The position numbers and the translations under genes were made by a program. DNA of 64,000 bases from a virus (Duplodnaviria; Heunggongvirae; Uroviricota; Caudoviricetes), in the IMG/VR virus record IMGVR_UViG_3300037261_000110; one strand, 5' to 3'. The notes under the pieces were generated by a model. The model was not told the DNA's origin. It was given only the letters and a program-made list of their open reading frames with translations, and searched no databases. Of this stretch, positions 976-52,156 are shown in pieces. Numbering within the stretch: position 1 is the stretch's first letter; each line of letters opens with the position of its first letter.

Positions 976-3879
976 CTATCTTAGCGGTCTACCGCGAAAA
1001 ATAGCCGTCATGATTGTAGGCTCCTCGAAGCCACGAGCGGCGATCTCCTTTTGAATTTGCTCAAGCCCGCCGATAAGGTTGCGAACTGGCGGTAATCCAA
1101 TATAATTTCGACCAGCCACTATACTTTTCGGTAAGGTACCGTCCTTTGGATTTGGCAAGGTACCTGCCTGAGAATCTGACAAGGTACCTGCTCCCTCAGA
1201 ATCTTTACGGTCCTCAGTCAGCTCTTGAAGCTTCGCCTCAACTTCCTTCCTCGCCTTTTCATTGTAGTTGCGAGAGCCAGCATAGCCGACGCCAGTCAGA
1301 CGCTTAGTACCGTACTTACGCTTCGGACGCGCCCAAGCGAGATATTGCGAAGTCGAGTCGCCCTGATCCTTGTACTTGGTCTCAGGCCAACCAAATATCT
1401 CAGCTTCATATTCTGCTAGCCACCCTGAATTCTCAGGTAGATGGACCAGATGCGCTTCCATCATTGGCGTCACACCATCCATGCGAAACTCTTTCGTAGC
1501 GTTATCAGTTGAGATAGCGATAACTGCACGCGGGCAATGTGGCGAGTTTGGATCGGATTGCTGCTGAATGTACTGAGTACCAGAACCCTTGTCTTCGACG
1601 AGAACACAATCCACATCTCTCAGCTCAGCAAGCTTGTTGAGCTTGTTTGCCATCTCAAAGAACTCCACACGCTTGCGGTAGACCTCGATCAAGTAGTGAT
1701 GGTTATCTTTAGTTTCATCCCAAATCGTTGCAACCGTATAAGCTGCACGCTCGTTGTTCTTGTTGGCAGTGTCGACTGACATAACACGACGCTTCACGTC
1801 TTTGCGCTCAGGACCGATGCGATAGCGTGTACTTGTGAACCATTCACGCTTGATGACGCCACCTTGCTCGTCGATCGGCTTGCCCATATACAAGCTGTTC
1901 CAATCCTTTGCGGATTGCTCAGACTTGATCTGCGCGAGAACATCTTTCGAAAAGAACTCAGGCCAAAGCGGATCACCAAACTGGCGTCCGATTGGATCGG
2001 GAACTGAATCGTCCAAGTAAATTGCCGGCAGGTTAATGATTTCCCAAGGGGCTCCATCGACCATACCTGCCTTGATCATCTTGTTTTCGGCCTCTAGGCG
2101 TCCGCAAAGATCGTCCGAATGCCAGCGCGTCGCCACTATGAACAGTGGAGCTTTGGGAAGCAGACGCGTAAGGTAGTCAGCCTTGAACCAAGCATAGGTT
2201 TTATTGCGGATCGTATCGGATTCCGCATCCTCTCTCGACGCAAATGGATCATCGACGCCAGCAAGATTAGTTCTGAAACCTGCAATTCCTTGTCCGACAC
2301 CACGTGTCAGATAAGCAGAGCCGTTATTTAGCACCCAATATCCGGCGGCGCGCGAAGCTGTGCTTAGCTGTATGTTCGGAAACACTTCAGCATAGCGATC
2401 AGACTCAATTATATCTCTGCACTTCTTACCAAATTCGTTCTCGACGAAGTTCTGGCTGTGTCCGGCTTGAAGATATTTCGTCTTTGGAGCAACACCCATC
2501 TTCCAGGTTGGAAATAAGCGCGAGGCATACGTCGAATTATGGGTTACAATATGTCCACGACCAACAAGAAACAAACCATCTTCGCGTTCGACAGTAATGC
2601 ATTGAGTCGATTGAGTTCCTTCAATCTTCTCGAACGAAATGTAACGTCCGTATTTACCTTCAAACTCAGTTGCACGACAGACCTTGCGCCATAGCTGAAA
2701 CGCACTCTTGAAGTAGAAAGACACGCGCCAATATTCACCGCAGTCTTTTCCGTTCAACATAGCACGTCCAGGGATGATTGAATTCTTCACCCCTAACGAA
2801 AACAGAAGTTCACTCACTGCGTCCCTCAAGCGAGAATTGGTTGAACAAAACGAACACTGTCCTGACGGCGAGACCGTTCCATCACTATCCATCAATCCTT
2901 GTAGAATTGATAAACGCACGTGATAAGAATTTCGAAGATACAGCTCAGGAACATGCTTATTGTTCAAGACACCAAGTGATACCAGATGCTTTCTAATGCC
3001 TAACAAACCAAATGCAGTCTTAGTTGTATGATCAGAAGTATGAACTCCGCACCATTCAATGCGCTCACGTACTTCCGGCTGATCCTTCACATCACATGTT
3101 ATTGTCGGTTGATCGGAATGCCCGTCGCCTAACCAATATCCAAGAACATAAGGATCAAGCGGAATCGTACGAGCCTTATATTCGACTGCTTCAAAATTTG
3201 GAAGTTTTGCACGGCGAGGAGATGTTCGATTGGCAAGATATTCAGTTGGATATGTCTTCCAATAATCACGCTTGCGATCTAATCGAACTGTCCACAAATG
3301 TTCCCCATCAACTAAAACAGCTTGTCCATCATCAGTGTATACACGATAGATTGTACGATTTTCAAACACCGGCGATTTTGCGATTATCTTAGTTGTTGTG
3401 CCGTCTGGTCCGTAAACCTTGTCACCGACTTTCAACTCAGCAATCGTTTTGTAACCGAGCGGAGTTGGAACCTTAGTATCCAGCACCATCGCTTTTGCAT
3501 GTCCTGGTGGCGCCGATATCATTAGACGCGAGTGCATTCCCTGTGACAAATCTGTCAGCTTATTCAGCATGAAGACATGCCAATCAGCCGGTGGTTCATC
3601 CGGAAAAATGTATTCACAATATGCAGTTAGGTCTTTTGGCGCGAGCTGAAGCAGAGCGCTCATGTACTCATTCGAAGTGCTTTCGTAAAGCTCTTCAAGT
3701 GCAATCAGCTGTTGCGCGGGATCGGTAGTACCTGTAAGTTCTATTATGAACTTAGTCTTTGTCGGCGTCAACATCGACTGACGTATCAGTGATGTTTCCA
3801 GCTCCGTCGCCACCATCTTCAGGTTCGTCAGTGACTTCCGTATCTGCTTGCGCGTCTTTTGCGAGATTATTTGCAGCAT
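976..3879 (-). CDS. terL: Terminase large subunit (TerL) interrupted by an in-frame intein. The extein N-terminus may start at the internal Met at 3816 or 3774
   Basis: Motifs: ATRWHSDDLCGRL, DGAPWEIINLP, FIVATRWH. A P-loop-like PPGHAK|S is split by about 319 aa that begin with a Hint block A and end in HN+S. Confidence 0.9.
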   Translation of the reverse strand: MLQIISQKTRKQIRKSLTNLKMVATELETSLIRQSMLTPTKTKFIIELTGTTDPAQQLIALEELYESTSNEYMSALLQLAPKDLTAYCEYIFPDEPPADWHVFMLNKLTDLSQGMHSRLMISAPPGHAKAMVLDTKVPTPLGYKTIAELKVGDKVYGPDGTTTKIIAKSPVFENRTIYRVYTDDGQAVLVDGEHLWTVRLDRKRDYWKTYPTEYLANRTSPRRAKLPNFEAVEYKARTIPLDPYVLGYWLGDGHSDQPTITCDVKDQPEVRERIEWCGVHTSDHTTKTAFGLLGIRKHLVSLGVLNNKHVPELYLRNSYHVRLSILQGLMDSDGTVSPSGQCSFCSTNSRLRDAVSELLFSLGVKNSIIPGRAMLNGKDCGEYWRVSFYFKSAFQLWRKVCRATEFEGKYGRYISFEKIEGTQSTQCITVEREDGLFLVGRGHIVTHNSTYASRLFPTWKMGVAPKTKYLQAGHSQNFVENEFGKKCRDIIESDRYAEVFPNIQLSTASRAAGYWVLNNGSAYLTRGVGQGIAGFRTNLAGVDDPFASREDAESDTIRNKTYAWFKADYLTRLLPKAPLFIVATRWHSDDLCGRLEAENKMIKAGMVDGAPWEIINLPAIYLDDSVPDPIGRQFGDPLWPEFFSKDVLAQIKSEQSAKDWNSLYMGKPIDEQGGVIKREWFTSTRYRIGPERKDVKRRVMSVDTANKNNERAAYTVATIWDETKDNHHYLIEVYRKRVEFFEMANKLNKLAELRDVDCVLVEDKGSGTQYIQQQSDPNSPHCPRAVIAISTDNATKEFRMDGVTPMMEAHLVHLPENSGWLAEYEAEIFGWPETKYKDQGDSTSQYLAWARPKRKYGTKRLTGVGYAGSRNYNEKARKEVEAKLQELTEDRKDSEGAGTLSDSQAGTLPNPKDGTLPKSIVAGRNYIGLPPVRNLIGGLEQIQKEIAARGFEEPTIMTAIFRGRPLR
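2536..3492 (-). mobile_element. Intein with a LAGLIDADG homing endonuclease domain, inserted in the TerL P-loop
   Basis: N-terminal block A-like (A)MVLDTKVPTPLGYKTIAELKVGDKV. Two LAGLIDADG motifs, LGYWLGDGH and LQGLMDSDG. C-terminus GHIVTHN followed by the +1 Ser. Confidence 0.8.
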
Positions 3880-43665: not shown

Positions 43666-44256
43666 TCATCCCAAATTCCTCACTAACTTCGTAACACCTT
43701 TTGACGGTTCAATGTAGTGTTGTGTCGTCTCAATGCTCGCGTGTCCCGCGAGTTCTTGAACGTCTCGAAGCGAGCACTTGTACATGTTCACCGACCGCGC
43801 CAGAGCCGTGATCATAGAACGGCGTCCAGAGTGGCTGGAAGCCCCCTGGAAGCCAGCGCTGCGGTAGAGCTGCCAGAGATAGACCGCGATGTGGTTAGGC
43901 GTCATGGCGCCCCCCTTGACGGCGCGGATGACCCTGGTCTCCAAATAGGTAATTTTCTTACCTTGACTCAGTTCGCGGAGTGCCTGATAAAGTTCAGCAT
44001 GGATCGGAATTTGCCGTCGTTTGTCACCCTTTCCGATCACATCAAAATAGTCGGTATGGAGGCGTCCCTGTGCGTCGCACAAATTGGACCAGTCCAAATC
44101 TGCAACCTCGGATGCTCGCAAGCCGGCCCTATATGTCAGGAGAATCATCACTTTATCCCGCAGGGGATGACGCTCGTTCGCGGCAAATTTTAGAAGCTCT
44201 CGAAGTTGAGGCTCCGTCAGGATTTGCGCCTGTTTCCGCCGACGCCGTAAACGCAC
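43666..44256 (-). CDS. Minimal tyrosine recombinase (catalytic domain only, 196 aa)
   Basis: Catalytic residues R (YRAGLRASE), K (GKGDKRR), HxxR (HSGRR) and H...Y (GHASIETTQHY). Confidence 0.75.
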   Translation of the reverse strand: MRLRRRRKQAQILTEPQLRELLKFAANERHPLRDKVMILLTYRAGLRASEVADLDWSNLCDAQGRLHTDYFDVIGKGDKRRQIPIHAELYQALRELSQGKKITYLETRVIRAVKGGAMTPNHIAVYLWQLYRSAGFQGASSHSGRRSMITALARSVNMYKCSLRDVQELAGHASIETTQHYIEPSKGVTKLVRNLG

Positions 44257-45051: not shown

Positions 45052-45322
45052 GTGACTCCCCTTTTCACTTTTGCTAGACGAAATGTAAGAAAAGGTGGGC
45101 GGGAATCAAGCGATTTGAGTTCTTGTGGTTAACTGCTCCCTGGTTGTTGGCGGGGCGGGTAAATGTGTCGTCCAATTCCATGCACGGGGCAGTTTTTGTT
45201 GAGATAGAAAAGCAGCTTACCGTGCTGGTCGAAGTAGCAAACAGACTGGTCTTTCGTCGTATTAGGACAGATGCAGTCGGCGCCTCCGTTGTTTTGAATG
45301 TCAATCAGAAGATCATCGATGG

Positions 45323-45946
45323 TCACTCGCCAGGACCTTTCTTGAGAACGTCTTCCGGCTTGGTGACTTTGAACTGGTATCCGCCGCTTCCGTCGTCGGG
45401 AACATCGCCCTGAGCGCCAGATGATGTGTCTTTGTCTCCTTCGAGACCCGGCTTACCTTTGCCGCCTTTTCCCTTGCCGCCTTTGCCACCGGCGCCGCCG
45501 ATGTCGTCGCCTTGTCCGTTTTTCTCGATGTCGACGACATCTCCGCTCTCGACTTGTTTCTTTGCGGCAGCGAATTTCTTAGCAGCTTCTTTCGAGTAGG
45601 GCAAGGCGTAATTCAGCGGTGCCAAATCCGAGTCCGAATAGACGAAATTGCTAAGCCAGGGAACGACTTGACCCTTCCTGTCAGGGTACAGCCATAGGTA
45701 AATATGACCGTTAGTGTTGATCCCTGGATTGATAATTTCGACTCCTTTCAGCCGACCTTTTATGAAATTCGCTTCCGCAGGCCAGCCTTTGTAACTCTCG
45801 AAGGAGTAGCTGATCGACGTGATGACGACGATTGCCAGCGCTGTCAGCACGAATTTGAACGGGCGCGTCGCCCGGTGATTGATGAAAGCTAGGGCAACGA
45901 GCGCCACTAGCAAGACCGTGTACAGACCTAAGAAAAAGTTGGACAA
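45323..45946 (-). CDS. Two-TM membrane protein with a Gly/Lys-rich C-terminal region
   Basis: TM helices LGLYTVLLVALVALAFI and FVLTALAIVVITSI; GGAGGKGGKGKGGKGKPG. Confidence 0.55.
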   Translation of the reverse strand: MSNFFLGLYTVLLVALVALAFINHRATRPFKFVLTALAIVVITSISYSFESYKGWPAEANFIKGRLKGVEIINPGINTNGHIYLWLYPDRKGQVVPWLSNFVYSDSDLAPLNYALPYSKEAAKKFAAAKKQVESGDVVDIEKNGQGDDIGGAGGKGGKGKGGKGKPGLEGDKDTSSGAQGDVPDDGSGGYQFKVTKPEDVLKKGPGE

Positions 45947-45958
45947 GATTGGCGCTCC

Positions 45959-46669
45959 TTATGGGTGGCTGTAGGGCGACGCTACCGGCATGGTGCTCAT
46001 GCCAGGAATGCCGCTGCCGGAAGAATCGCCGCTTAGCTCGGTCACGCGCGAGGCTACCAGCTCTTCATCGCTCTGTTCGATATTGAGGATGGTTCCCTGT
46101 GCATCCACGTCAAACATGACGACCGGAACCTCTTCCCAAACTCTGTGGAAAGTGGCGACGCGGGAATCAGCCACGACATACGTCGGATTGACCTTTTCGA
46201 CCGAAGTCTTCACGTCGAAGGTTTTCTCGGCGCCATGTGGCATTCCGACGTTTTCGATGCGACAGGCGAACAGATGGATACTCACCTTGTAGGTGCCGGG
46301 AACGATTCCGCGCATCGAATAGAACTCTTTGTGATCGTGCGAGACCACAAGGGTTCCATCCGGGAGCTTGGTCGAGCTGTTTACGTCGCCGCGATCGTCA
46401 AACTCCAAGTGAGCCAAGCCGTTGACTTTCTGCTTGAAGTAGGTGACGGCGCCAGTCGGGTCCTTCACCCAAAGGTCTACGTCACAGTTGTCAACTGCCC
46501 AACTGGCAGAGACTACGAGCTGAGCGTTACGCGTGGCGTCGGCGTCACTTTTCGACGGGTTCGTGTCGACAATGGCAAGCAGGAACAGCGCCGCCAACGT
46601 GGTTATGAAGGCGTTGGCGAAGTCGATGTAGCTGAGCTGCCACGACGAATCTGTGGTGAACGGGTTCAT
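45959..46669 (-). CDS. MotB/ExbD/TolR-like membrane protein with a non-OmpA periplasmic domain
   Basis: SWQLSYIDFANAFITTLAALFLLAIV aligns with the MotB consensus [22 protein letters not shown], including the conserved Asp; start overlaps the MotA-like gene stop. Confidence 0.65.
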   Translation of the reverse strand: MNPFTTDSSWQLSYIDFANAFITTLAALFLLAIVDTNPSKSDADATRNAQLVVSASWAVDNCDVDLWVKDPTGAVTYFKQKVNGLAHLEFDDRGDVNSSTKLPDGTLVVSHDHKEFYSMRGIVPGTYKVSIHLFACRIENVGMPHGAEKTFDVKTSVEKVNPTYVVADSRVATFHRVWEEVPVVMFDVDAQGTILNIEQSDEELVASRVTELSGDSSGSGIPGMSTMPVASPYSHP

Positions 46670-47166
46670 TATTCGTCATCCATGACGCCCGAGAGCGCGC
46701 TGTACCAGAAGAGCTGGTTGCTGAGAAAGAGAGCGGACGCAACCCCGAGACCGGTTGTCGAGAACACGATGCCGAGCGGCGGAAGCAGGTGCGGAGCCAA
46801 TGTCGCCATCGTGAAGCTAGCAAGGTTGCTAGTTCCGCCGAATGAGCTGTAAAATAGGAACATGCTGCCGCAAACGGTTCCGAGAATGCCCCACAGGAAC
46901 ACCTGAGTGGCATAGAACCAAACACCAGCTAGCCACTTGCGGACGCGGCGCTTGTGCCATTCTTTCGGATCGGTAGCGTGCTTCCAGGCGACGTAGCCGA
47001 TCGTTAAGTTTGCCGTGACTGCTATGGCTGCGATGATCTGCGTGATGTGGGTCACGTCAAACGAATAGATCAGCGTCGCAATGCCTTTTGAGGACAAGTA
47101 GAAGACGATAGTTCCGACAAGCAGTGTGATGACGAACCACACATAGAGTGGGGTAAATTTTCCCAT
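46669..47166 (-). CDS. Minimal MotA/TolQ/ExbB-family channel protein (4 TM, 165 aa)
   Basis: Family signature LWGILGTVCGSMFLF (GLLGTVxGMI) and TTGLGVASALFLS (TTaxGLxvAIP). Confidence 0.65.
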   Translation of the reverse strand: MGKFTPLYVWFVITLLVGTIVFYLSSKGIATLIYSFDVTHITQIIAAIAVTANLTIGYVAWKHATDPKEWHKRRVRKWLAGVWFYATQVFLWGILGTVCGSMFLFYSSFGGTSNLASFTMATLAPHLLPPLGIVFSTTGLGVASALFLSNQLFWYSALSGVMDDE

Positions 47167-47171
47167 GGTAG

Positions 47172-48248
47172 CTATTCTTTCTCTTTCGCTTGCGGTTGAT
47201 GTTCTACTTCAATCGCTTGGATGATTTTGGAGCTGGTATTGCCTGCACCTACGGCTACGTTTACCGTACTTATTTTGTTCTCTTGAGAAAGAACTTTGAG
47301 GGTCACACGGTCGCCTGTGTCCAGGACAAAGATGTGATTTGGAAGGTCATCTTCTTCGACGAGCGGGAAAGGCGAATTGGTGAACTTGGTAGAGACTTCG
47401 AGAATCCTGTCACCAACCTTAGCCTTACCCTTCAGCACTGAGTCCGGCAGGATTTCCTTAATAAGCATACCAACGCCTTCCGGTGATGGCGTGTACGAGA
47501 CGCCAAGCCGAGGCCAGACGATTTTCTTGGTGTCCTGATGGAGATCGCGGATGACTTTCTCGACGATTTCACTCGGGATCGCGAACGGAATCGAGCCGCC
47601 TTGAACGACTTTGATCATGTTGTTGATGCCGACAACCTGTCCCGCCATATTGAAGAGAGGACCGCCGCTGTTGCCATTGGTGATACGTAGATCGGACTGC
47701 ATGTAGTAAACCGGCGACAGCGGCTCTATCTTGCGATAGGAAGCCGAGAGGTAGCCATGCGTCATTGTCCACGTCAGCTCGACGGGCATGCCGATCGCCC
47801 ACACTTCGTCGCCCACCTTCAGATCGGAGGCTGGTGCGAAGCGAAGAATCTTGTACGGTACTTCTTTTCTGAATTTCTGCCAATCGTCCACGCGGAGCTG
47901 GGCAACATCCGCCAGCACGTCAGCGCCGACGACCGTCGCCTGATACCATTTCGTGCTTTTCTTAGTCCTGATGCGCAGCTGGTCTGCCTTCTGCATTCCC
48001 TCGATGACGTGCGCGTTGGTCGTGATCATCCCGGAATCGTCACTGAAAAACCCGGTTCCGACAGCGGTTCCCTGCTGTCCGGTTGCTGGATCAACCGTGC
48101 CGCCGGCTTCAATGAAAACGACGCCTTCCATTGTGCGGTCGACGAGATTGGGGAAGTCATTTCCGAAAATGTAAGAATTTCCGAGGAGCACGAGGAGGGA
48201 AACGCAGCTGATAAGCGTTATCAGCAAAGGGCGAAGCTGGATTTTCAT
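47172..48248 (-). CDS. HtrA/DegP-family (S1C) serine protease with a signal anchor and a PDZ domain
   Basis: His (TTNAHVI), Asp (DVAQLRV), Ser (TNGNSGGPLF) and a PDZ segment (GKAKVGDRILEV). Confidence 0.8.
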   Translation of the reverse strand: MKIQLRPLLITLISCVSLLVLLGNSYIFGNDFPNLVDRTMEGVVFIEAGGTVDPATGQQGTAVGTGFFSDDSGMITTNAHVIEGMQKADQLRIRTKKSTKWYQATVVGADVLADVAQLRVDDWQKFRKEVPYKILRFAPASDLKVGDEVWAIGMPVELTWTMTHGYLSASYRKIEPLSPVYYMQSDLRITNGNSGGPLFNMAGQVVGINNMIKVVQGGSIPFAIPSEIVEKVIRDLHQDTKKIVWPRLGVSYTPSPEGVGMLIKEILPDSVLKGKAKVGDRILEVSTKFTNSPFPLVEEDDLPNHIFVLDTGDRVTLKVLSQENKISTVNVAVGAGNTSSKIIQAIEVEHQPQAKEKE

Positions 48249-48413
48249 AATTTGTGGCCTTTCCGGCTTTTTGGATAATGCTCGCATTAACCTAAATTGT
48301 CAATCGAAAAATAATGTGAACGAACTCGGGAATTTTTGGCGGTGTACGATCTCGCTTGACAAATCGAAGAAATTGTAGCATGAATCTGGCGAAAGATAGG
48401 AAAACAGGTAGAG

Positions 48414-50678
48414 ATGAAAATAGAGACCGCCGAGAGAGTAGCCGAGTTTGCTGGTTTTCTTGAAGAGAAAAGCTTCACGATAGCAGCAAACGGTAAAGCT
48501 TTTCGGGTCCTCATTGATAAACTTTACTCAAACGTTCATCAAGCTATTGTACGCGAGCTGATGACGAATGCTTGGGATGCGCATGTTTCGGCGGCAAATC
48601 TAAAACCTTTCGAAATTCACGTGCCGACAGCGTTTGAGCCCTTCTTTTCTATTCGTGACTTCGGCTGTGCAATGACTCACTCAGAAGTCATGAACGTCTA
48701 CTCGACGATATTCGAGTCAACCAAGGATGCTCGTGACGATCAGGTCGGCGCCTGGGGCCTTGGCTCAAAAACACCTTTCGCCTACACTGACACTTTTGGC
48801 GTGCAAGTCTGGCTAGATGACCGCCATAGGGTGTATAATGTCTTCATAGATGCGACCGGTGTCCCAAAAATCGCCCTGGCGCTCGACGAAGAGAATGACG
48901 GTGCCGCGAACGGCGTTGAGGTATCCTTTCCAGTCGGTGTCAAAGATGCCGGTCTTTTTCGAACCGCGCTCGAAGTGGTTAGCATTGGCTTCGAAGTCAA
49001 GCCAAAATTTTCTGGTTCGCTCAATGTTCTGGAATTAGAGAAGCGTCGTCAAGGTGCTGGCTGGTTCACGTTCGTCTATTCCAGTGGACCAACATGGTTG
49101 AAAAAGCCGGTTGCTCGGGTCGGCTGCGTCCTCTATCCGATCAAGCTGGACGTGGTGTGTGATCTCATAAGAGACAAAGCGACGAAGCCAGAGTGCTGGC
49201 AGCTTTTGTCCAGCGTGCATGGTTTTCCGGGCACGCCAATGATCCTCGATTTCCCAATTAGCTCGATCGAAGTCACAGCCAATCGTGAAGACTTATACTA
49301 TTCGGAACGAACTGTCAAGTCTATTGTTGATAGATTCGAGACAATCGTTCAGGAAATGAAAGCTGAGTTTTTAGCTAATATCAAGAAAGGCAAGACTCTC
49401 TATGAAGTGAATATGGAAGTCCTCGAAGTCTGCGAGATGTTCGCCGACGTTGCCTCTGGCGTCTCTAGCTATCTCCGTGATTTTGCTCGGCAACAGAGCT
49501 TCAAAGGACGAAAGCTTCTTCACAAAATCGTTTTTCGACATAGATACAAAACGGTTGAGGAAAAGAACGCTGCCGGTGAGGCAGTCATTTATCGAGTTCC
49601 GACTCGTTACAATAGCATTCAATTCGTCTACTATCTAGGCTCGAAATTCATTCGTCAACCAGGACTGCAATTCTGTGATTCTGAGGAAATGTCTTGGACT
49701 CCGCGTGTTACCGACTTCTTCGTTGAGCTGCCGGGCGAAAAGGGTAAGCGCGTGCCGTACGCTGCTCGCCGCATTCGTCACGAGCGCAACGAAGCCGGCA
49801 CGACCGTGCGCCACGATCTTATGTGGATCAAGACACCCTCACTCTCGGACCCTCACTTCGTAAAAATGTGGATCGGGCTCGGGCGCCCGCCTTATAAACT
49901 GGTCAACGATCTGGTGAGACCGCCGGGCATTCCGACCGAGCGCTATATAACCCCGATGCGCATTTATAATTCGAATGCAGATACGTGGGAAAGGTATGAC
50001 GATTTCGACGTTGAGAATGACGCCGGGTTTTATGTGATGCTCAACTGCGGGCTTCCGGAGCATATAAAGAGCGTGAAGCTCTGCGATCTGATCGGATTTC
50101 TGGAATCAAAGCGCGCGATCCACAATGCCCGTCATATCATTGGCATCCCAAAGAGCCGCAAGTCAGTTCTCTCAAAATCCGATCAATGGATTGACATGGT
50201 TCCCGTCCTTAAAGCAGCCTACCGCAAAGCGCTCAACGTGAAGCAGGCAGCGGTCAGTTTCAGTGTTAAAGAGATCACAATCGACAAAGGGGATCAAGGC
50301 ACGTTAGAAAGATTGAACCGCAAGCTTGGTAGGTTTGATCCGGCGTCGCCGTTCGTTCAAGCGATTAAAGCCTATGATCGGTTGGGAGCGATTGAGGCGA
50401 CAGCTGCCGAATTTAAGAGTGCCTGGAATCATCGATGGGTGCTTGATTATGAGGAGCGTGCGAAGCTCGACGAAGAATACAACGCGCTCGCCAAAAGTGA
50501 CCCGGCGCTGGTTTCTGAGATTGGCTCTATCAAGTCTGCCATCGAAGGTGTTTTTCAAGCCTATCCTTTACTGCAAAAAGTGCCATATCCCGATCAAGAT
50601 GCTTTGAAAGCACTCGACGACTATATTGTAGCGATGGACTGTTTTAGAGGGGCGCTTGCTAGTGGCTTACAAAAATAA
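48414..50678 (+). CDS. rIIA: rIIA-like protein (GHKL ATPase-domain protein)
   Basis: FRVLIDKLYSNVHQAIVRELMTNAWDAH matches the T4 rIIA N-terminus (VVRELITNMIDAH); also GAWGLGSKTPF. Confidence 0.8.
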   Translation: MKIETAERVAEFAGFLEEKSFTIAANGKAFRVLIDKLYSNVHQAIVRELMTNAWDAHVSAANLKPFEIHVPTAFEPFFSIRDFGCAMTHSEVMNVYSTIFESTKDARDDQVGAWGLGSKTPFAYTDTFGVQVWLDDRHRVYNVFIDATGVPKIALALDEENDGAANGVEVSFPVGVKDAGLFRTALEVVSIGFEVKPKFSGSLNVLELEKRRQGAGWFTFVYSSGPTWLKKPVARVGCVLYPIKLDVVCDLIRDKATKPECWQLLSSVHGFPGTPMILDFPISSIEVTANREDLYYSERTVKSIVDRFETIVQEMKAEFLANIKKGKTLYEVNMEVLEVCEMFADVASGVSSYLRDFARQQSFKGRKLLHKIVFRHRYKTVEEKNAAGEAVIYRVPTRYNSIQFVYYLGSKFIRQPGLQFCDSEEMSWTPRVTDFFVELPGEKGKRVPYAARRIRHERNEAGTTVRHDLMWIKTPSLSDPHFVKMWIGLGRPPYKLVNDLVRPPGIPTERYITPMRIYNSNADTWERYDDFDVENDAGFYVMLNCGLPEHIKSVKLCDLIGFLESKRAIHNARHIIGIPKSRKSVLSKSDQWIDMVPVLKAAYRKALNVKQAAVSFSVKEITIDKGDQGTLERLNRKLGRFDPASPFVQAIKAYDRLGAIEATAAEFKSAWNHRWVLDYEERAKLDEEYNALAKSDPALVSEIGSIKSAIEGVFQAYPLLQKVPYPDQDALKALDDYIVAMDCFRGALASGLQK

Positions 50679-51147
50679 AGATGATGACAAAAAATGGAGA
50701 GAAGCTAACGAGGATCATCTAAAGCAATATAAAAGAGACTACTACAGACGGAAGTATGGAAAAAATCGTGAAAAAATGTGTCCTAAACCTAAAAGACGCA
50801 CAGATCACTTGAAGAGATACGGTATCACTATAAATGAGTGGGAGAAGATGTTTGAAAAACAGGGTAAAATATGTGCTCTGTGTGGATCAGATGTCCCTGC
50901 CAAACACTCAAATCGATGGAATACGGATCATGATCACGATACAGGGATAATTAGAGGAATTATTTGTTGCAGTTGTAACAATGGATTAGGTCTATTCAAG
51001 GATGATCCAGTGCTACTGCGCAAGGCCGCCAACTATATAGAACTAAGCAAACCTCTTAATTTTTTACTTGACAATCGGAAAAAACCCGAGCATTATGCCG
51101 AAACTCAAACCATAGAGACGGACAGCAATGAGCACGATCCCGCATAG
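50656..51147 (+). CDS. Endonuclease VII-family nuclease, copy 3, inserted between rIIA and rIIB
   Basis: CALCGSD...TDHDHDTGIIRGIICCSCNNGLGLF; AT-rich codon usage. Confidence 0.75.
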   Translation: MLVAYKNKDDDKKWREANEDHLKQYKRDYYRRKYGKNREKMCPKPKRRTDHLKRYGITINEWEKMFEKQGKICALCGSDVPAKHSNRWNTDHDHDTGIIRGIICCSCNNGLGLFKDDPVLLRKAANYIELSKPLNFLLDNRKKPEHYAETQTIETDSNEHDPA

Positions 51148-52156
51148 CATTACCGCCAATTCGATCTCGGTTCTGATCGATTATCGGATGCGCGTCATTC
51201 CGAAGTCGTCTGTGAACTTCGATGCAATTCGAGCCGAACTCGGCAAGGGCGAGAAGGCGGATATCGGCAAGCTCAAGTCGCTGGTTGACATTCCATCGTT
51301 CATCGCTCGGGTCACGGCTGGACGTATTCGCGTCTCCGACGACGAAGTGTATTTCAAGTCGGAAAAAGTCAACAGCTACGCGGCTCAGCGTCTTTTGGAG
51401 CACCTGAGAGACGGTGATTCGATCGAACCGCTTGCCAAGCTGCTCGACAAGCTGATGGACAATCCGAACCCGGCACTCCGCAACGATCTGTGGCTGTGGA
51501 TCGAACAAGCCAATCTGCCGATTGCCGGTGACGGTGATATCTTGGCCTTCAAAAAGGTCGATCCGGAATATAAGTCGTTCCACAAGAACACCGATGGCAC
51601 GTACCACGTTCATCGTGTCGGAACACGCGTTCACATGCCACGTGAGCATTGTGACCCGAACCGTCATTCGGTTTGTTCGACCGGGCTGCACTTCTGTTCA
51701 TATGGCTATCTGCACACGTATGAAGGAACCAGCGGGCACGTCGTTATCGTGAAAATCAACCCACGTGACATTACCGCGATTCCGTCTGACGCCTCCGATC
51801 AAAAGGGACGCTGCTGTCTCTATGAAGTGGTCCAGGAAATCGACCAGGAGGAAGCTAAGCAGTTTTTCAGGGGTAACGTCGTCTCGCACGTCGGCACTTA
51901 TGACGAGCCAGAGCCCGACGAACCGCCGGTGGATTGGGACGATCATGAAGGCGGCTACGAGATCGGCGAGGGAGCTGCCGAGCCAGAGGCTGTGGTCAAT
52001 GCCAGTGATGACGGATTCACGATCGTCATCGGCAGCAAGCGCGTCAGCCGCCAGCACCTGAATGATACCGTCGCCAGTCTCGGACAGCGCGGCGCCGCCA
52101 AGAAGCTCGGCATACCACGCACGTCGCTTCAGGACGCACTCAAGCGCATGAAGTGA
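51128..52156 (+). CDS. rIIB: rIIB-like protein with a C-terminal HTH
   Basis: CSTGLHFCSYGY ... VVIVKINPRDITAIPSD ... CCLYEVVQE matches the T4 rIIB core. Confidence 0.75.
   Translation: MSTIPHSITANSISVLIDYRMRVIPKSSVNFDAIRAELGKGEKADIGKLKSLVDIPSFIARVTAGRIRVSDDEVYFKSEKVNSYAAQRLLEHLRDGDSIEPLAKLLDKLMDNPNPALRNDLWLWIEQANLPIAGDGDILAFKKVDPEYKSFHKNTDGTYHVHRVGTRVHMPREHCDPNRHSVCSTGLHFCSYGYLHTYEGTSGHVVIVKINPRDITAIPSDASDQKGRCCLYEVVQEIDQEEAKQFFRGNVVSHVGTYDEPEPDEPPVDWDDHEGGYEIGEGAAEPEAVVNASDDGFTIVIGSKRVSRQHLNDTVASLGQRGAAKKLGIPRTSLQDALKRMK

Follow-up and report, generated by a model that had tools for sequence, protein, structure and literature searches.

The sequence considered here, referred to as the window, is a 64,000-nucleotide (nt) stretch of the viral record IMGVR_UViG_3300037261_000110, in which position 1 is the first letter. 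Between positions 45323 and 48287 it carries four co-directional open reading frames (ORFs) on the minus strand, which encode a serine protease of the HtrA/Do family and three further membrane proteins, termed here A, B and C. An earlier note on this DNA had described this layout with the same coordinates, and the ORF list agrees with both. It had also proposed that A and B form a stator pair of the MotA/MotB type with the protease as a dedicated partner. The unit that is conserved, in phages and in bacteria, is A-B-C. With a confidence somewhat above even, it is read as a three-gene minimal ion-driven motor of the MotAB/ExbBD/TolQR (5:2) kind, to which the protease would be a lineage-specific addition. 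The features of the operon are collected in Table 1.

Table 1. Features of the operon, with positions in the window; TM, transmembrane; aa, amino acids; HMM, hidden Markov model; AF2, AlphaFold 2.
Feature	Position	Strand	Basis or remark
Sigma-70-like promoter candidate, TTGACA-17-CATTAT	48275..48303	-	10/12 consensus matches, pattern match only
HtrA/Do-family serine protease, 358 aa from M14	47172..48248	-	371 aa if the start is at 48287
A subunit, 165 aa, four-helix MotA/ExbB/TolQ-family	46669..47166	-	Family and PDB profile matches, model, conservation
B subunit, 236 aa, one TM helix and TerD-like beta-sandwich	45959..46669	-	AF2 model, fold matches, residue conservation
C subunit, 207 aa, two TM helices	45323..45946	-	HMM match, synteny, C-terminal motif
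65-aa Cys-rich ORF	45129..45326	-	GTG start overlaps the C stop (GTGA)

The protease stop codon lies 5 nt from the start of A, close by and without overlap. The A and B genes share a single base within the sequence TAATG, which is the stop/start overlap that had been described. Public gene callers begin the protease at M14, and this start is favoured because the ATG at 48287 is situated upstream of the promoter candidate. Predicted from simple hydropathy and the AF2 models are a single N-terminal membrane anchor in the protease and four, one and two membrane helices in A, B and C, respectively. Scans of the four proteins with Pfam, PHROGs, PADLOC and NCBIfam give a direct family assignment for the protease only. 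The Cys-rich ORF, which is kept in L010 (63 aa), a relative of 68% identity, and has no family match in the profile libraries, is a possible fifth gene of the operon. Near-identical genomes (locus L009, 1416-2035; a 152,366-bp ENA contig with P0181/P0182) have C split into ORFs of 60 and 100 aa and the protease into ORFs of 260 and 98 aa. These are either population frameshift variants or assembly errors in low-complexity sequence.

The relatives of A were collected by an exhaustive HMMER search over 1.84 billion representative sequences; single-protein word-indexed searches gave only 2-4 close relatives. This results in a family of 72 relatives at E<1e-3, nearly all of 150-180 aa. The Pfam model PF01618 (MotA_ExbB) is matched by 57 of 66 members of the family (best 6e-12), and three longer matches (P0032, P0052 and P0051) exceed the Pfam cut-off. 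The family profile in turn matches the solved TolQ (1.6e-5), MotA (3.5e-5) and ZorA (2e-4), and also PomA and ExbB, over two pore-lining helices. The MotA/ExbB signature attributed to A is thereby upheld, though it is established only through the family profile. For one viral member, the closest curated match below threshold is ZorA. The AF2 model of A has a predicted local distance difference test score (pLDDT) of 92 and a MotA-like layout of four TM helices; it comprises five helices with no extra domain. The cytoplasmic loop is of approximately 15 residues (62-78), without a sizeable cytoplasmic domain. The pore helices carry the motifs G93-x-x-G96-T97 and T138...G141...Q151, and these six residues are conserved in 63-68 of the 68 viral sequences. 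A is concluded to belong, as a divergent member, to a subfamily of short MotA/ExbB/TolQ proteins in which the cytoplasmic domain is missing.

No match to B is found in Pfam, PHROGs, PADLOC, NCBIfam or the PDB sequences. An alignment query recovers 67 relatives of approximately 200 aa in phage-sized contigs and bacterial bins, and homologues of the C-terminal domain occur in 29 Rhizobium and Sinorhizobium phage records. The AF2 model (pLDDT 86) has a short cytoplasmic N-terminus, a TM helix at residues 9-36 and a beta-sandwich at approximately 50-200; the C-terminus is a disordered tail rich in Ser, Pro and Gly. The helix contains Asp16, which is present in 144 of 148 sequences. In hhalign comparisons with E. 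coli sequences, the best local alignment to MotB covers the TM helix and pairs Asp16 with Asp32 (P=0.002, probability 13%), and the alignment to ExbD places Asp16 on Asp25 (P=0.011). The description of B as MotB-like is sustained in its position, topology and conserved Asp, but not in the supposed likeness of its TM helix to TolR. The bacterial B proteins (L096-L175, on Burkholderiales chromosomes) carry a further Asp, four positions N-terminal to the conserved residue.

The periplasmic domain of B is not OmpA-like, as the earlier note had held, nor does it have the ExbD/TolR-type fold. Structure comparison of the model matches the sandwich to the TerD-type beta-sandwich fold at 9-13% identity, and the Pfam TerD model gives no match. 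Residues W57, D63, D65, D91, G94 and E115 are invariant in the 148 sequences, with D92 nearly so. The acidic cluster D63/D65/D91/D92/E115 is probably a metal-binding site and a candidate equivalent of the Ca2+ sites of TerD. As judged by sequence, homology to stator B subunits goes beyond what one helix can prove, and the head domain is new in such a role.

The two TM helices and Gly/Lys-rich tail reported for C are present, the tail being rich in Gly, Lys and Asp. C had been listed simply as the last gene, and its place as an integral, conserved third subunit was missed. With an HMM built from nine sequences, C homologues are recovered immediately after B in 92 of the 95 loci. Their common anatomy starts with a pair of TM helices at the N-terminus, followed by a small periplasmic domain, and a low-complexity linker leads from there to a C-terminal peptide. 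The core of the small domain reads GWP...Y-x-W...L-x-Y, with L-P-Y in the window, and there is neither a conserved His nor a SHLS-type motif. The terminal peptide is conserved in phages and bacteria (FYELPPPSYPQK, KLRDLPVPQLPEK) and is YQFKVTKPEDVLKK in the window. This anatomy suggests a tethered docking arm.

The expectation that these genes co-occur beyond this genome is borne out, with A, B and C adjacent and co-directional in 90 of the 95 loci. Eighty IMG/VR viral contigs, reaching 328 kb in length, are among the 95. Both gene families are rare in viral contigs, with 93 pattern-confirmed A-B-C loci and 83 such HtrA loci among 2.9 million. Complete genomes of cultured Rhizobium phages carry A-B-C; DNA-level searches and A-protein tblastn searches of deposited phages found nothing. 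At least 365 species-level bacterial genomes also contain relatives of A-B-C. The bacterial loci studied are the best 80 relatives, all of which are from Burkholderiales, including isolates of Pelomonas, Variovorax and Hydrogenophaga. The bacterial cluster is A (with a longer loop)-B-C-D, flanked by metabolic genes. The fourth gene, D, is found in 71 of the 80 loci (e.g., L011 7097-7813 and L014 7076-7750) and has no counterpart in the phage operons. It encodes approximately 235 aa with a lipobox-like N-terminus, is not OmpA-like, and gives a weak DUF3108-like match (5.9e-5) below the cut-off.

Public annotation describes A, B, C and D as "hypothetical", and UniProt gives an automatic MotA/TolQ/ExbB domain tag to A of the Rhizobium phages only. 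NCBIfam and PHROGs hold no family for B, C or D. A description of the module was not found in the literature, in line with the earlier view that it corresponds to no described system. In 13 marine viral loci (L030 7628-8623 and 12 others), C is followed immediately, in the same orientation, by a gene for an SbmA/BacA-family transporter of approximately 322 aa (NF009036, 1.2e-126, above cut-off). This suggests that the motor module is linked with peptide or solute uptake in marine phages.

The module resembles the Tol and Ton systems in several ways. A is homologous to TolQ and ExbB over the two pore-lining helices with the G-x-x-G-T and T...G motifs, the gene for B follows immediately and encodes a single TM helix bearing a conserved Asp, and the third membrane protein has a long flexible periplasmic linker. 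The lipoprotein-like fourth gene of the bacterial version recalls Pal. Unlike TolQ and ExbB, A has four TM helices and nearly no cytoplasmic domain, and B carries a TerD-like sandwich, unlike TolR and ExbD. C differs from TonB in its two TM helices and in having neither a SHLS-type motif nor TonB_C, and from TolA in having no TolA homology. Furthermore, no TolB or TonB-dependent receptor is linked to the module, in contrast to Tol-Pal and Ton. Compared with MotA-MotB and PomA-PomB, it has no torque interface, no evident plug helix, no OmpA-like domain and no flagellar neighbours. It is also unlike Zorya, as there is no long ZorA tail and no ZorC, ZorD or ZorE, and it is encoded by a phage instead of a host. 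The PADLOC Zorya models do not match A, B or C, no other PADLOC model hits these subunits, and no effector genes are found in the neighbourhood.

Two recent surveys, of the generic ion transporter (GIT) clade of MotAB homologues (mBio 2025, PMC12505986) and of new motor-linked force transducers (MBE 2025, PMC12204202), report many non-flagellar A/B pairs that are uncharacterised, have a condensed cytoplasmic domain and bear varied appendages, as well as new non-TonB transducers encoded beside motor genes. The module fits the broad picture they give, here with a cytoplasmic loop of only ~15 residues. The keyword passages of PMC12505986 and PMC12204202 contain no phage-encoded module; a TerD-like B or a two-TM C partner was not searched for in them.

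On the preferred reading, A would form a ring that supplies the pore helices, in a 5:2 assembly with B. B would supply the central TM helix with the ion-carrying Asp, its TerD-like head replacing the peptidoglycan-binding or ExbD-type domain. The output would have to be periplasmic, because A has nearly no cytoplasmic domain. C may be anchored beside the motor by its two TM helices and reach into the periplasm through its flexible linker to the docking peptide, in the manner of a TonB/TolA-like force arm. Ion flow would thus be turned into work delivered through the acidic head of B and the tethered peptide of C, an arrangement analogous, not homologous, to ExbD-TonB and TolR-TolA. Phages may have acquired the module from the chromosomal A-B-C-D system of Proteobacteria, or may share it with that system. 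In the window, the module would be co-transcribed behind the gene for an exported HtrA protease/chaperone, probably early and from a promoter of the host type.

A number of observations weigh against this reading. The A protein of the window taken alone is below threshold with PF01618 (E=0.23, 11.7 bits against a cut-off of 22.9), and its fold matches are non-specific, with designed helical bundles scoring equally high. In the Burkholderiales A proteins, Lys is found in 75 of 79 sequences at the position of T97 in the window, a residue that lines up with the GT motif of TolQ. B is assigned to the MotB/ExbD type through a single short helix, and a subclade of B (P0095, P0097, P0099, P0101 and P0132) is without Asp at the aligned position. 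TolR was tried in the same hhalign comparison and was rejected since an unrelated segment was aligned, with no alignment of the TM helix. C has no detectable homology to TonB or TolA and no TonB_C match. In addition, a marine arrangement of A-B-C and HtrA, described below, is kept through 50-66% divergence, and the linkage to the protease may mean more than the word "accessory" implies.

The protease itself is of the HtrA/DegP type, as originally described, with matches to TIGR02037 (1.9e-48) and Trypsin_2 (3.8e-25) and the catalytic triad H93/D127/S207 in the 371-aa numbering. Its N-terminus is a single hydrophobic signal anchor. The PDZ domain that had been claimed is supported by the MucD/DegP and TIGR02037 alignments, which run through PDZ1 (residues ~260-350). 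Tested against the Pfam PDZ models alone, the window protease gives no match, and the homologue of L082 matches PDZ_2 above threshold. The protein falls in phrog_11383, a viral family of unknown function, and is named "serine protease Do" by the Joint Genome Institute (JGI). It shares with DegP, DegQ, DegS and MucD (HtrA, S1C) a trypsin-like fold, a His-Asp-Ser triad, one PDZ-type domain and an export signal. It differs from them in being encoded by a phage, in having a single PDZ domain and in sharing an operon with a motor module, and it scores far under the NCBIfam equivalog cut-offs.

Two divergent clades have such a protease linked to A-B-C. In the window and L010, which are 65-81% identical to each other, the order is protease-A-B-C. 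In the marine clade (L179, which is the L082 contig, L180 and L192), small lipoproteins come after A-B-C and are succeeded by an exported protein and HtrA, with an SbmA-family transporter ahead of the exported protein in two of the three contigs; the L082 contig looks viral. The lipoproteins of the marine clade are one to three tandem lipobox proteins of approximately 70 aa after C (L179 7139-7873; L180 4818-5463 and 7364-7897; L192 5329-5559 and 7273-7881), and a conserved exported protein of 167-202 aa lies directly before HtrA. Neither the lipobox proteins nor the exported protein have a family match. In L001 and L079, the gene for a shorter trypsin-like peptidase is found ~2 kb downstream. 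There is no HtrA within 5 kb of A-B-C-D in 80 of the 80 bacterial loci, and none in the complete Rhizobium phage genomes that carry A-B-C. Conversely, A-B-C lies within 8 kb of only 3 of 80 viral HtrA loci, and one contig of 134.5 kb contains both, ~70 kb apart. Homologues of HtrA are found in 19 of 50,697 deposited phage records, mostly mis-filed bacterial DNA.

Two candidates were rejected in this comparison. L008 and L009 appeared to be protease-less variants, but these contigs, which match the window at 100% identity, break off within the protease gene. The INPHARED record MW462191, a possible third HtrA-linked lineage, proved to be bacterial in this region, with Ccm and GlnE genes. The dedicated partnership proposed by the earlier note is not borne out, as the conserved unit is A-B-C and HtrA is patchy. 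The protease is an occasional, possibly functionally related addition and not the defining output of the module; a functional link of the two within particular lineages is possible.

Among the alternatives, the one that survives best, although still unlikely, is that A-B-C and the protease are functionally independent accessory genes with envelope-directed products, brought together loosely or by chance in an early membrane-gene island near rIIA/rIIB. Phage accessory genes that act in a common cellular compartment often cluster, co-occurrence with the protease is patchy, and the marine island holds lipoproteins, an SbmA-family transporter and exported proteins besides. Chance would have to account for a linkage seen in two divergent clades, and for the tight operon spacing in the window, with two families that are both rare in viral contigs.

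A dedicated motor-protease system is less probable again, and is considered doubtful. In this scheme, proton-driven A-B, with or without C, would activate, position or feed HtrA, and periplasmic proteolysis would be the output, serving superinfection exclusion, abortive infection or lysis control. The 5-nt spacing and single transcription unit agree with it, as do the recurrence of the pairing in L010 (65-68% identity) and, with another gene order, in the divergent marine clade, and the great rarity of HtrA-like proteases in deposited phages. C terminates in a conserved peptide, and peptide tails are bound by PDZ domains. Binding of that peptide by the PDZ domain is nonetheless not favoured: C ends in charged residues, unlike the classical ligands of HtrA PDZ domains, and the motif is kept where there is no phage protease. 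The absence of HtrA near the bacterial loci and from the Rhizobium phages, and the three viral HtrA loci in 80 that have A-B-C, also count against this scheme, as do the several unrelated envelope genes between C and the protease in the marine clade.

A bolder form of the motor reading, which is judged improbable and slightly more so than the last, holds that A-B-C is a minimal ion-driven rotary motor of a class not recognised before, with all of its work in the periplasm, and that it is coupled, mechanically or through regulation, to HtrA in some phages and to an SbmA-type transporter in marine phages. If this is true, the phage would bring its own proton-powered envelope machine, e.g., for stripping or remodelling receptors to exclude rivals, or for importing a substrate. 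Finally, it is very improbable that the short A, with or without B, is a decoy that intercalates into or competes with host MotA, TolQ, ExbB or ZorA rings, against Zorya or the Ton/Tol-dependent entry of a rival for instance. A does lack the cytoplasmic domain used by all characterised family members, a viral member has ZorA as its sub-threshold match and the module resides in a phage. On the other side, hundreds of bacterial species keep A-B-C on their chromosomes as an operon whose Asp and pore residues are intact, which argues for a machine that works autonomously. The B and C genes also evolve together with A, their order being strictly maintained, and there are no PADLOC hits.

The source of the window is a phage. 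It is part of a ~153-kb phage-like metagenomic contig and also encodes a large terminase, a family-A DNA polymerase, a polynucleotide kinase and a RecE-like exonuclease. The genes rIIA (48414-50678) and rIIB (51128-52156) adjoin the operon and are divergently transcribed from it. The label "T4-like" is not supported even with rIIA and rIIB adjacent, as the polymerase is of family A and the terminase TerL is of siphophage type, not T4 gp17. The neighbouring primase noted earlier is a 939-aa protein of the DUF5906/P4 type. The neighbouring recombinase is indeed a tyrosine recombinase, but only a catalytic domain: the 196-aa ORF at 43666-44256 (minus strand) equals the catalytic C-terminal domain of XerC/XerD-type enzymes. 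This ORF is kept in relatives, and no other sign of an integration module is seen in the phage. A 163-aa Endonuclease_7/HNH-like ORF (50656-51147, plus strand) separates rIIA from rIIB and overlaps both at its ends; it looks like a mobile, homing-type insertion because rIIA and rIIB are directly adjacent in L010. The large terminase ORF (976-3879, minus strand) encodes 967 aa, ~200 residues beyond the matching PHROG profile. It may hold an insertion or intein-like element, since the best matches in cultured phages cover only parts of it.

For the three-gene motor, a role in envelope maintenance, remodelling or transport in the infected cell is favoured over abortive infection or lysis. The neighbours of the module, namely the SbmA-family transporter, HtrA, the small lipoproteins and rIIA/rIIB, support an envelope or transport theme without defining the role.

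Overall, the module is a widespread and undescribed relative of a known class of machine, for which the motor assignment holds and the idea of a dedicated protease mostly does not. With approximately 160 residues and no cytoplasmic domain, its A ring subunit would be among the smallest versions found here, and the head of the B subunit and the third subunit are both of new types. A proton-powered envelope machine encoded by a phage would be unusual and experimentally tractable, and its minimal ring may be attractive for studies of how ion flow is coupled to movement.

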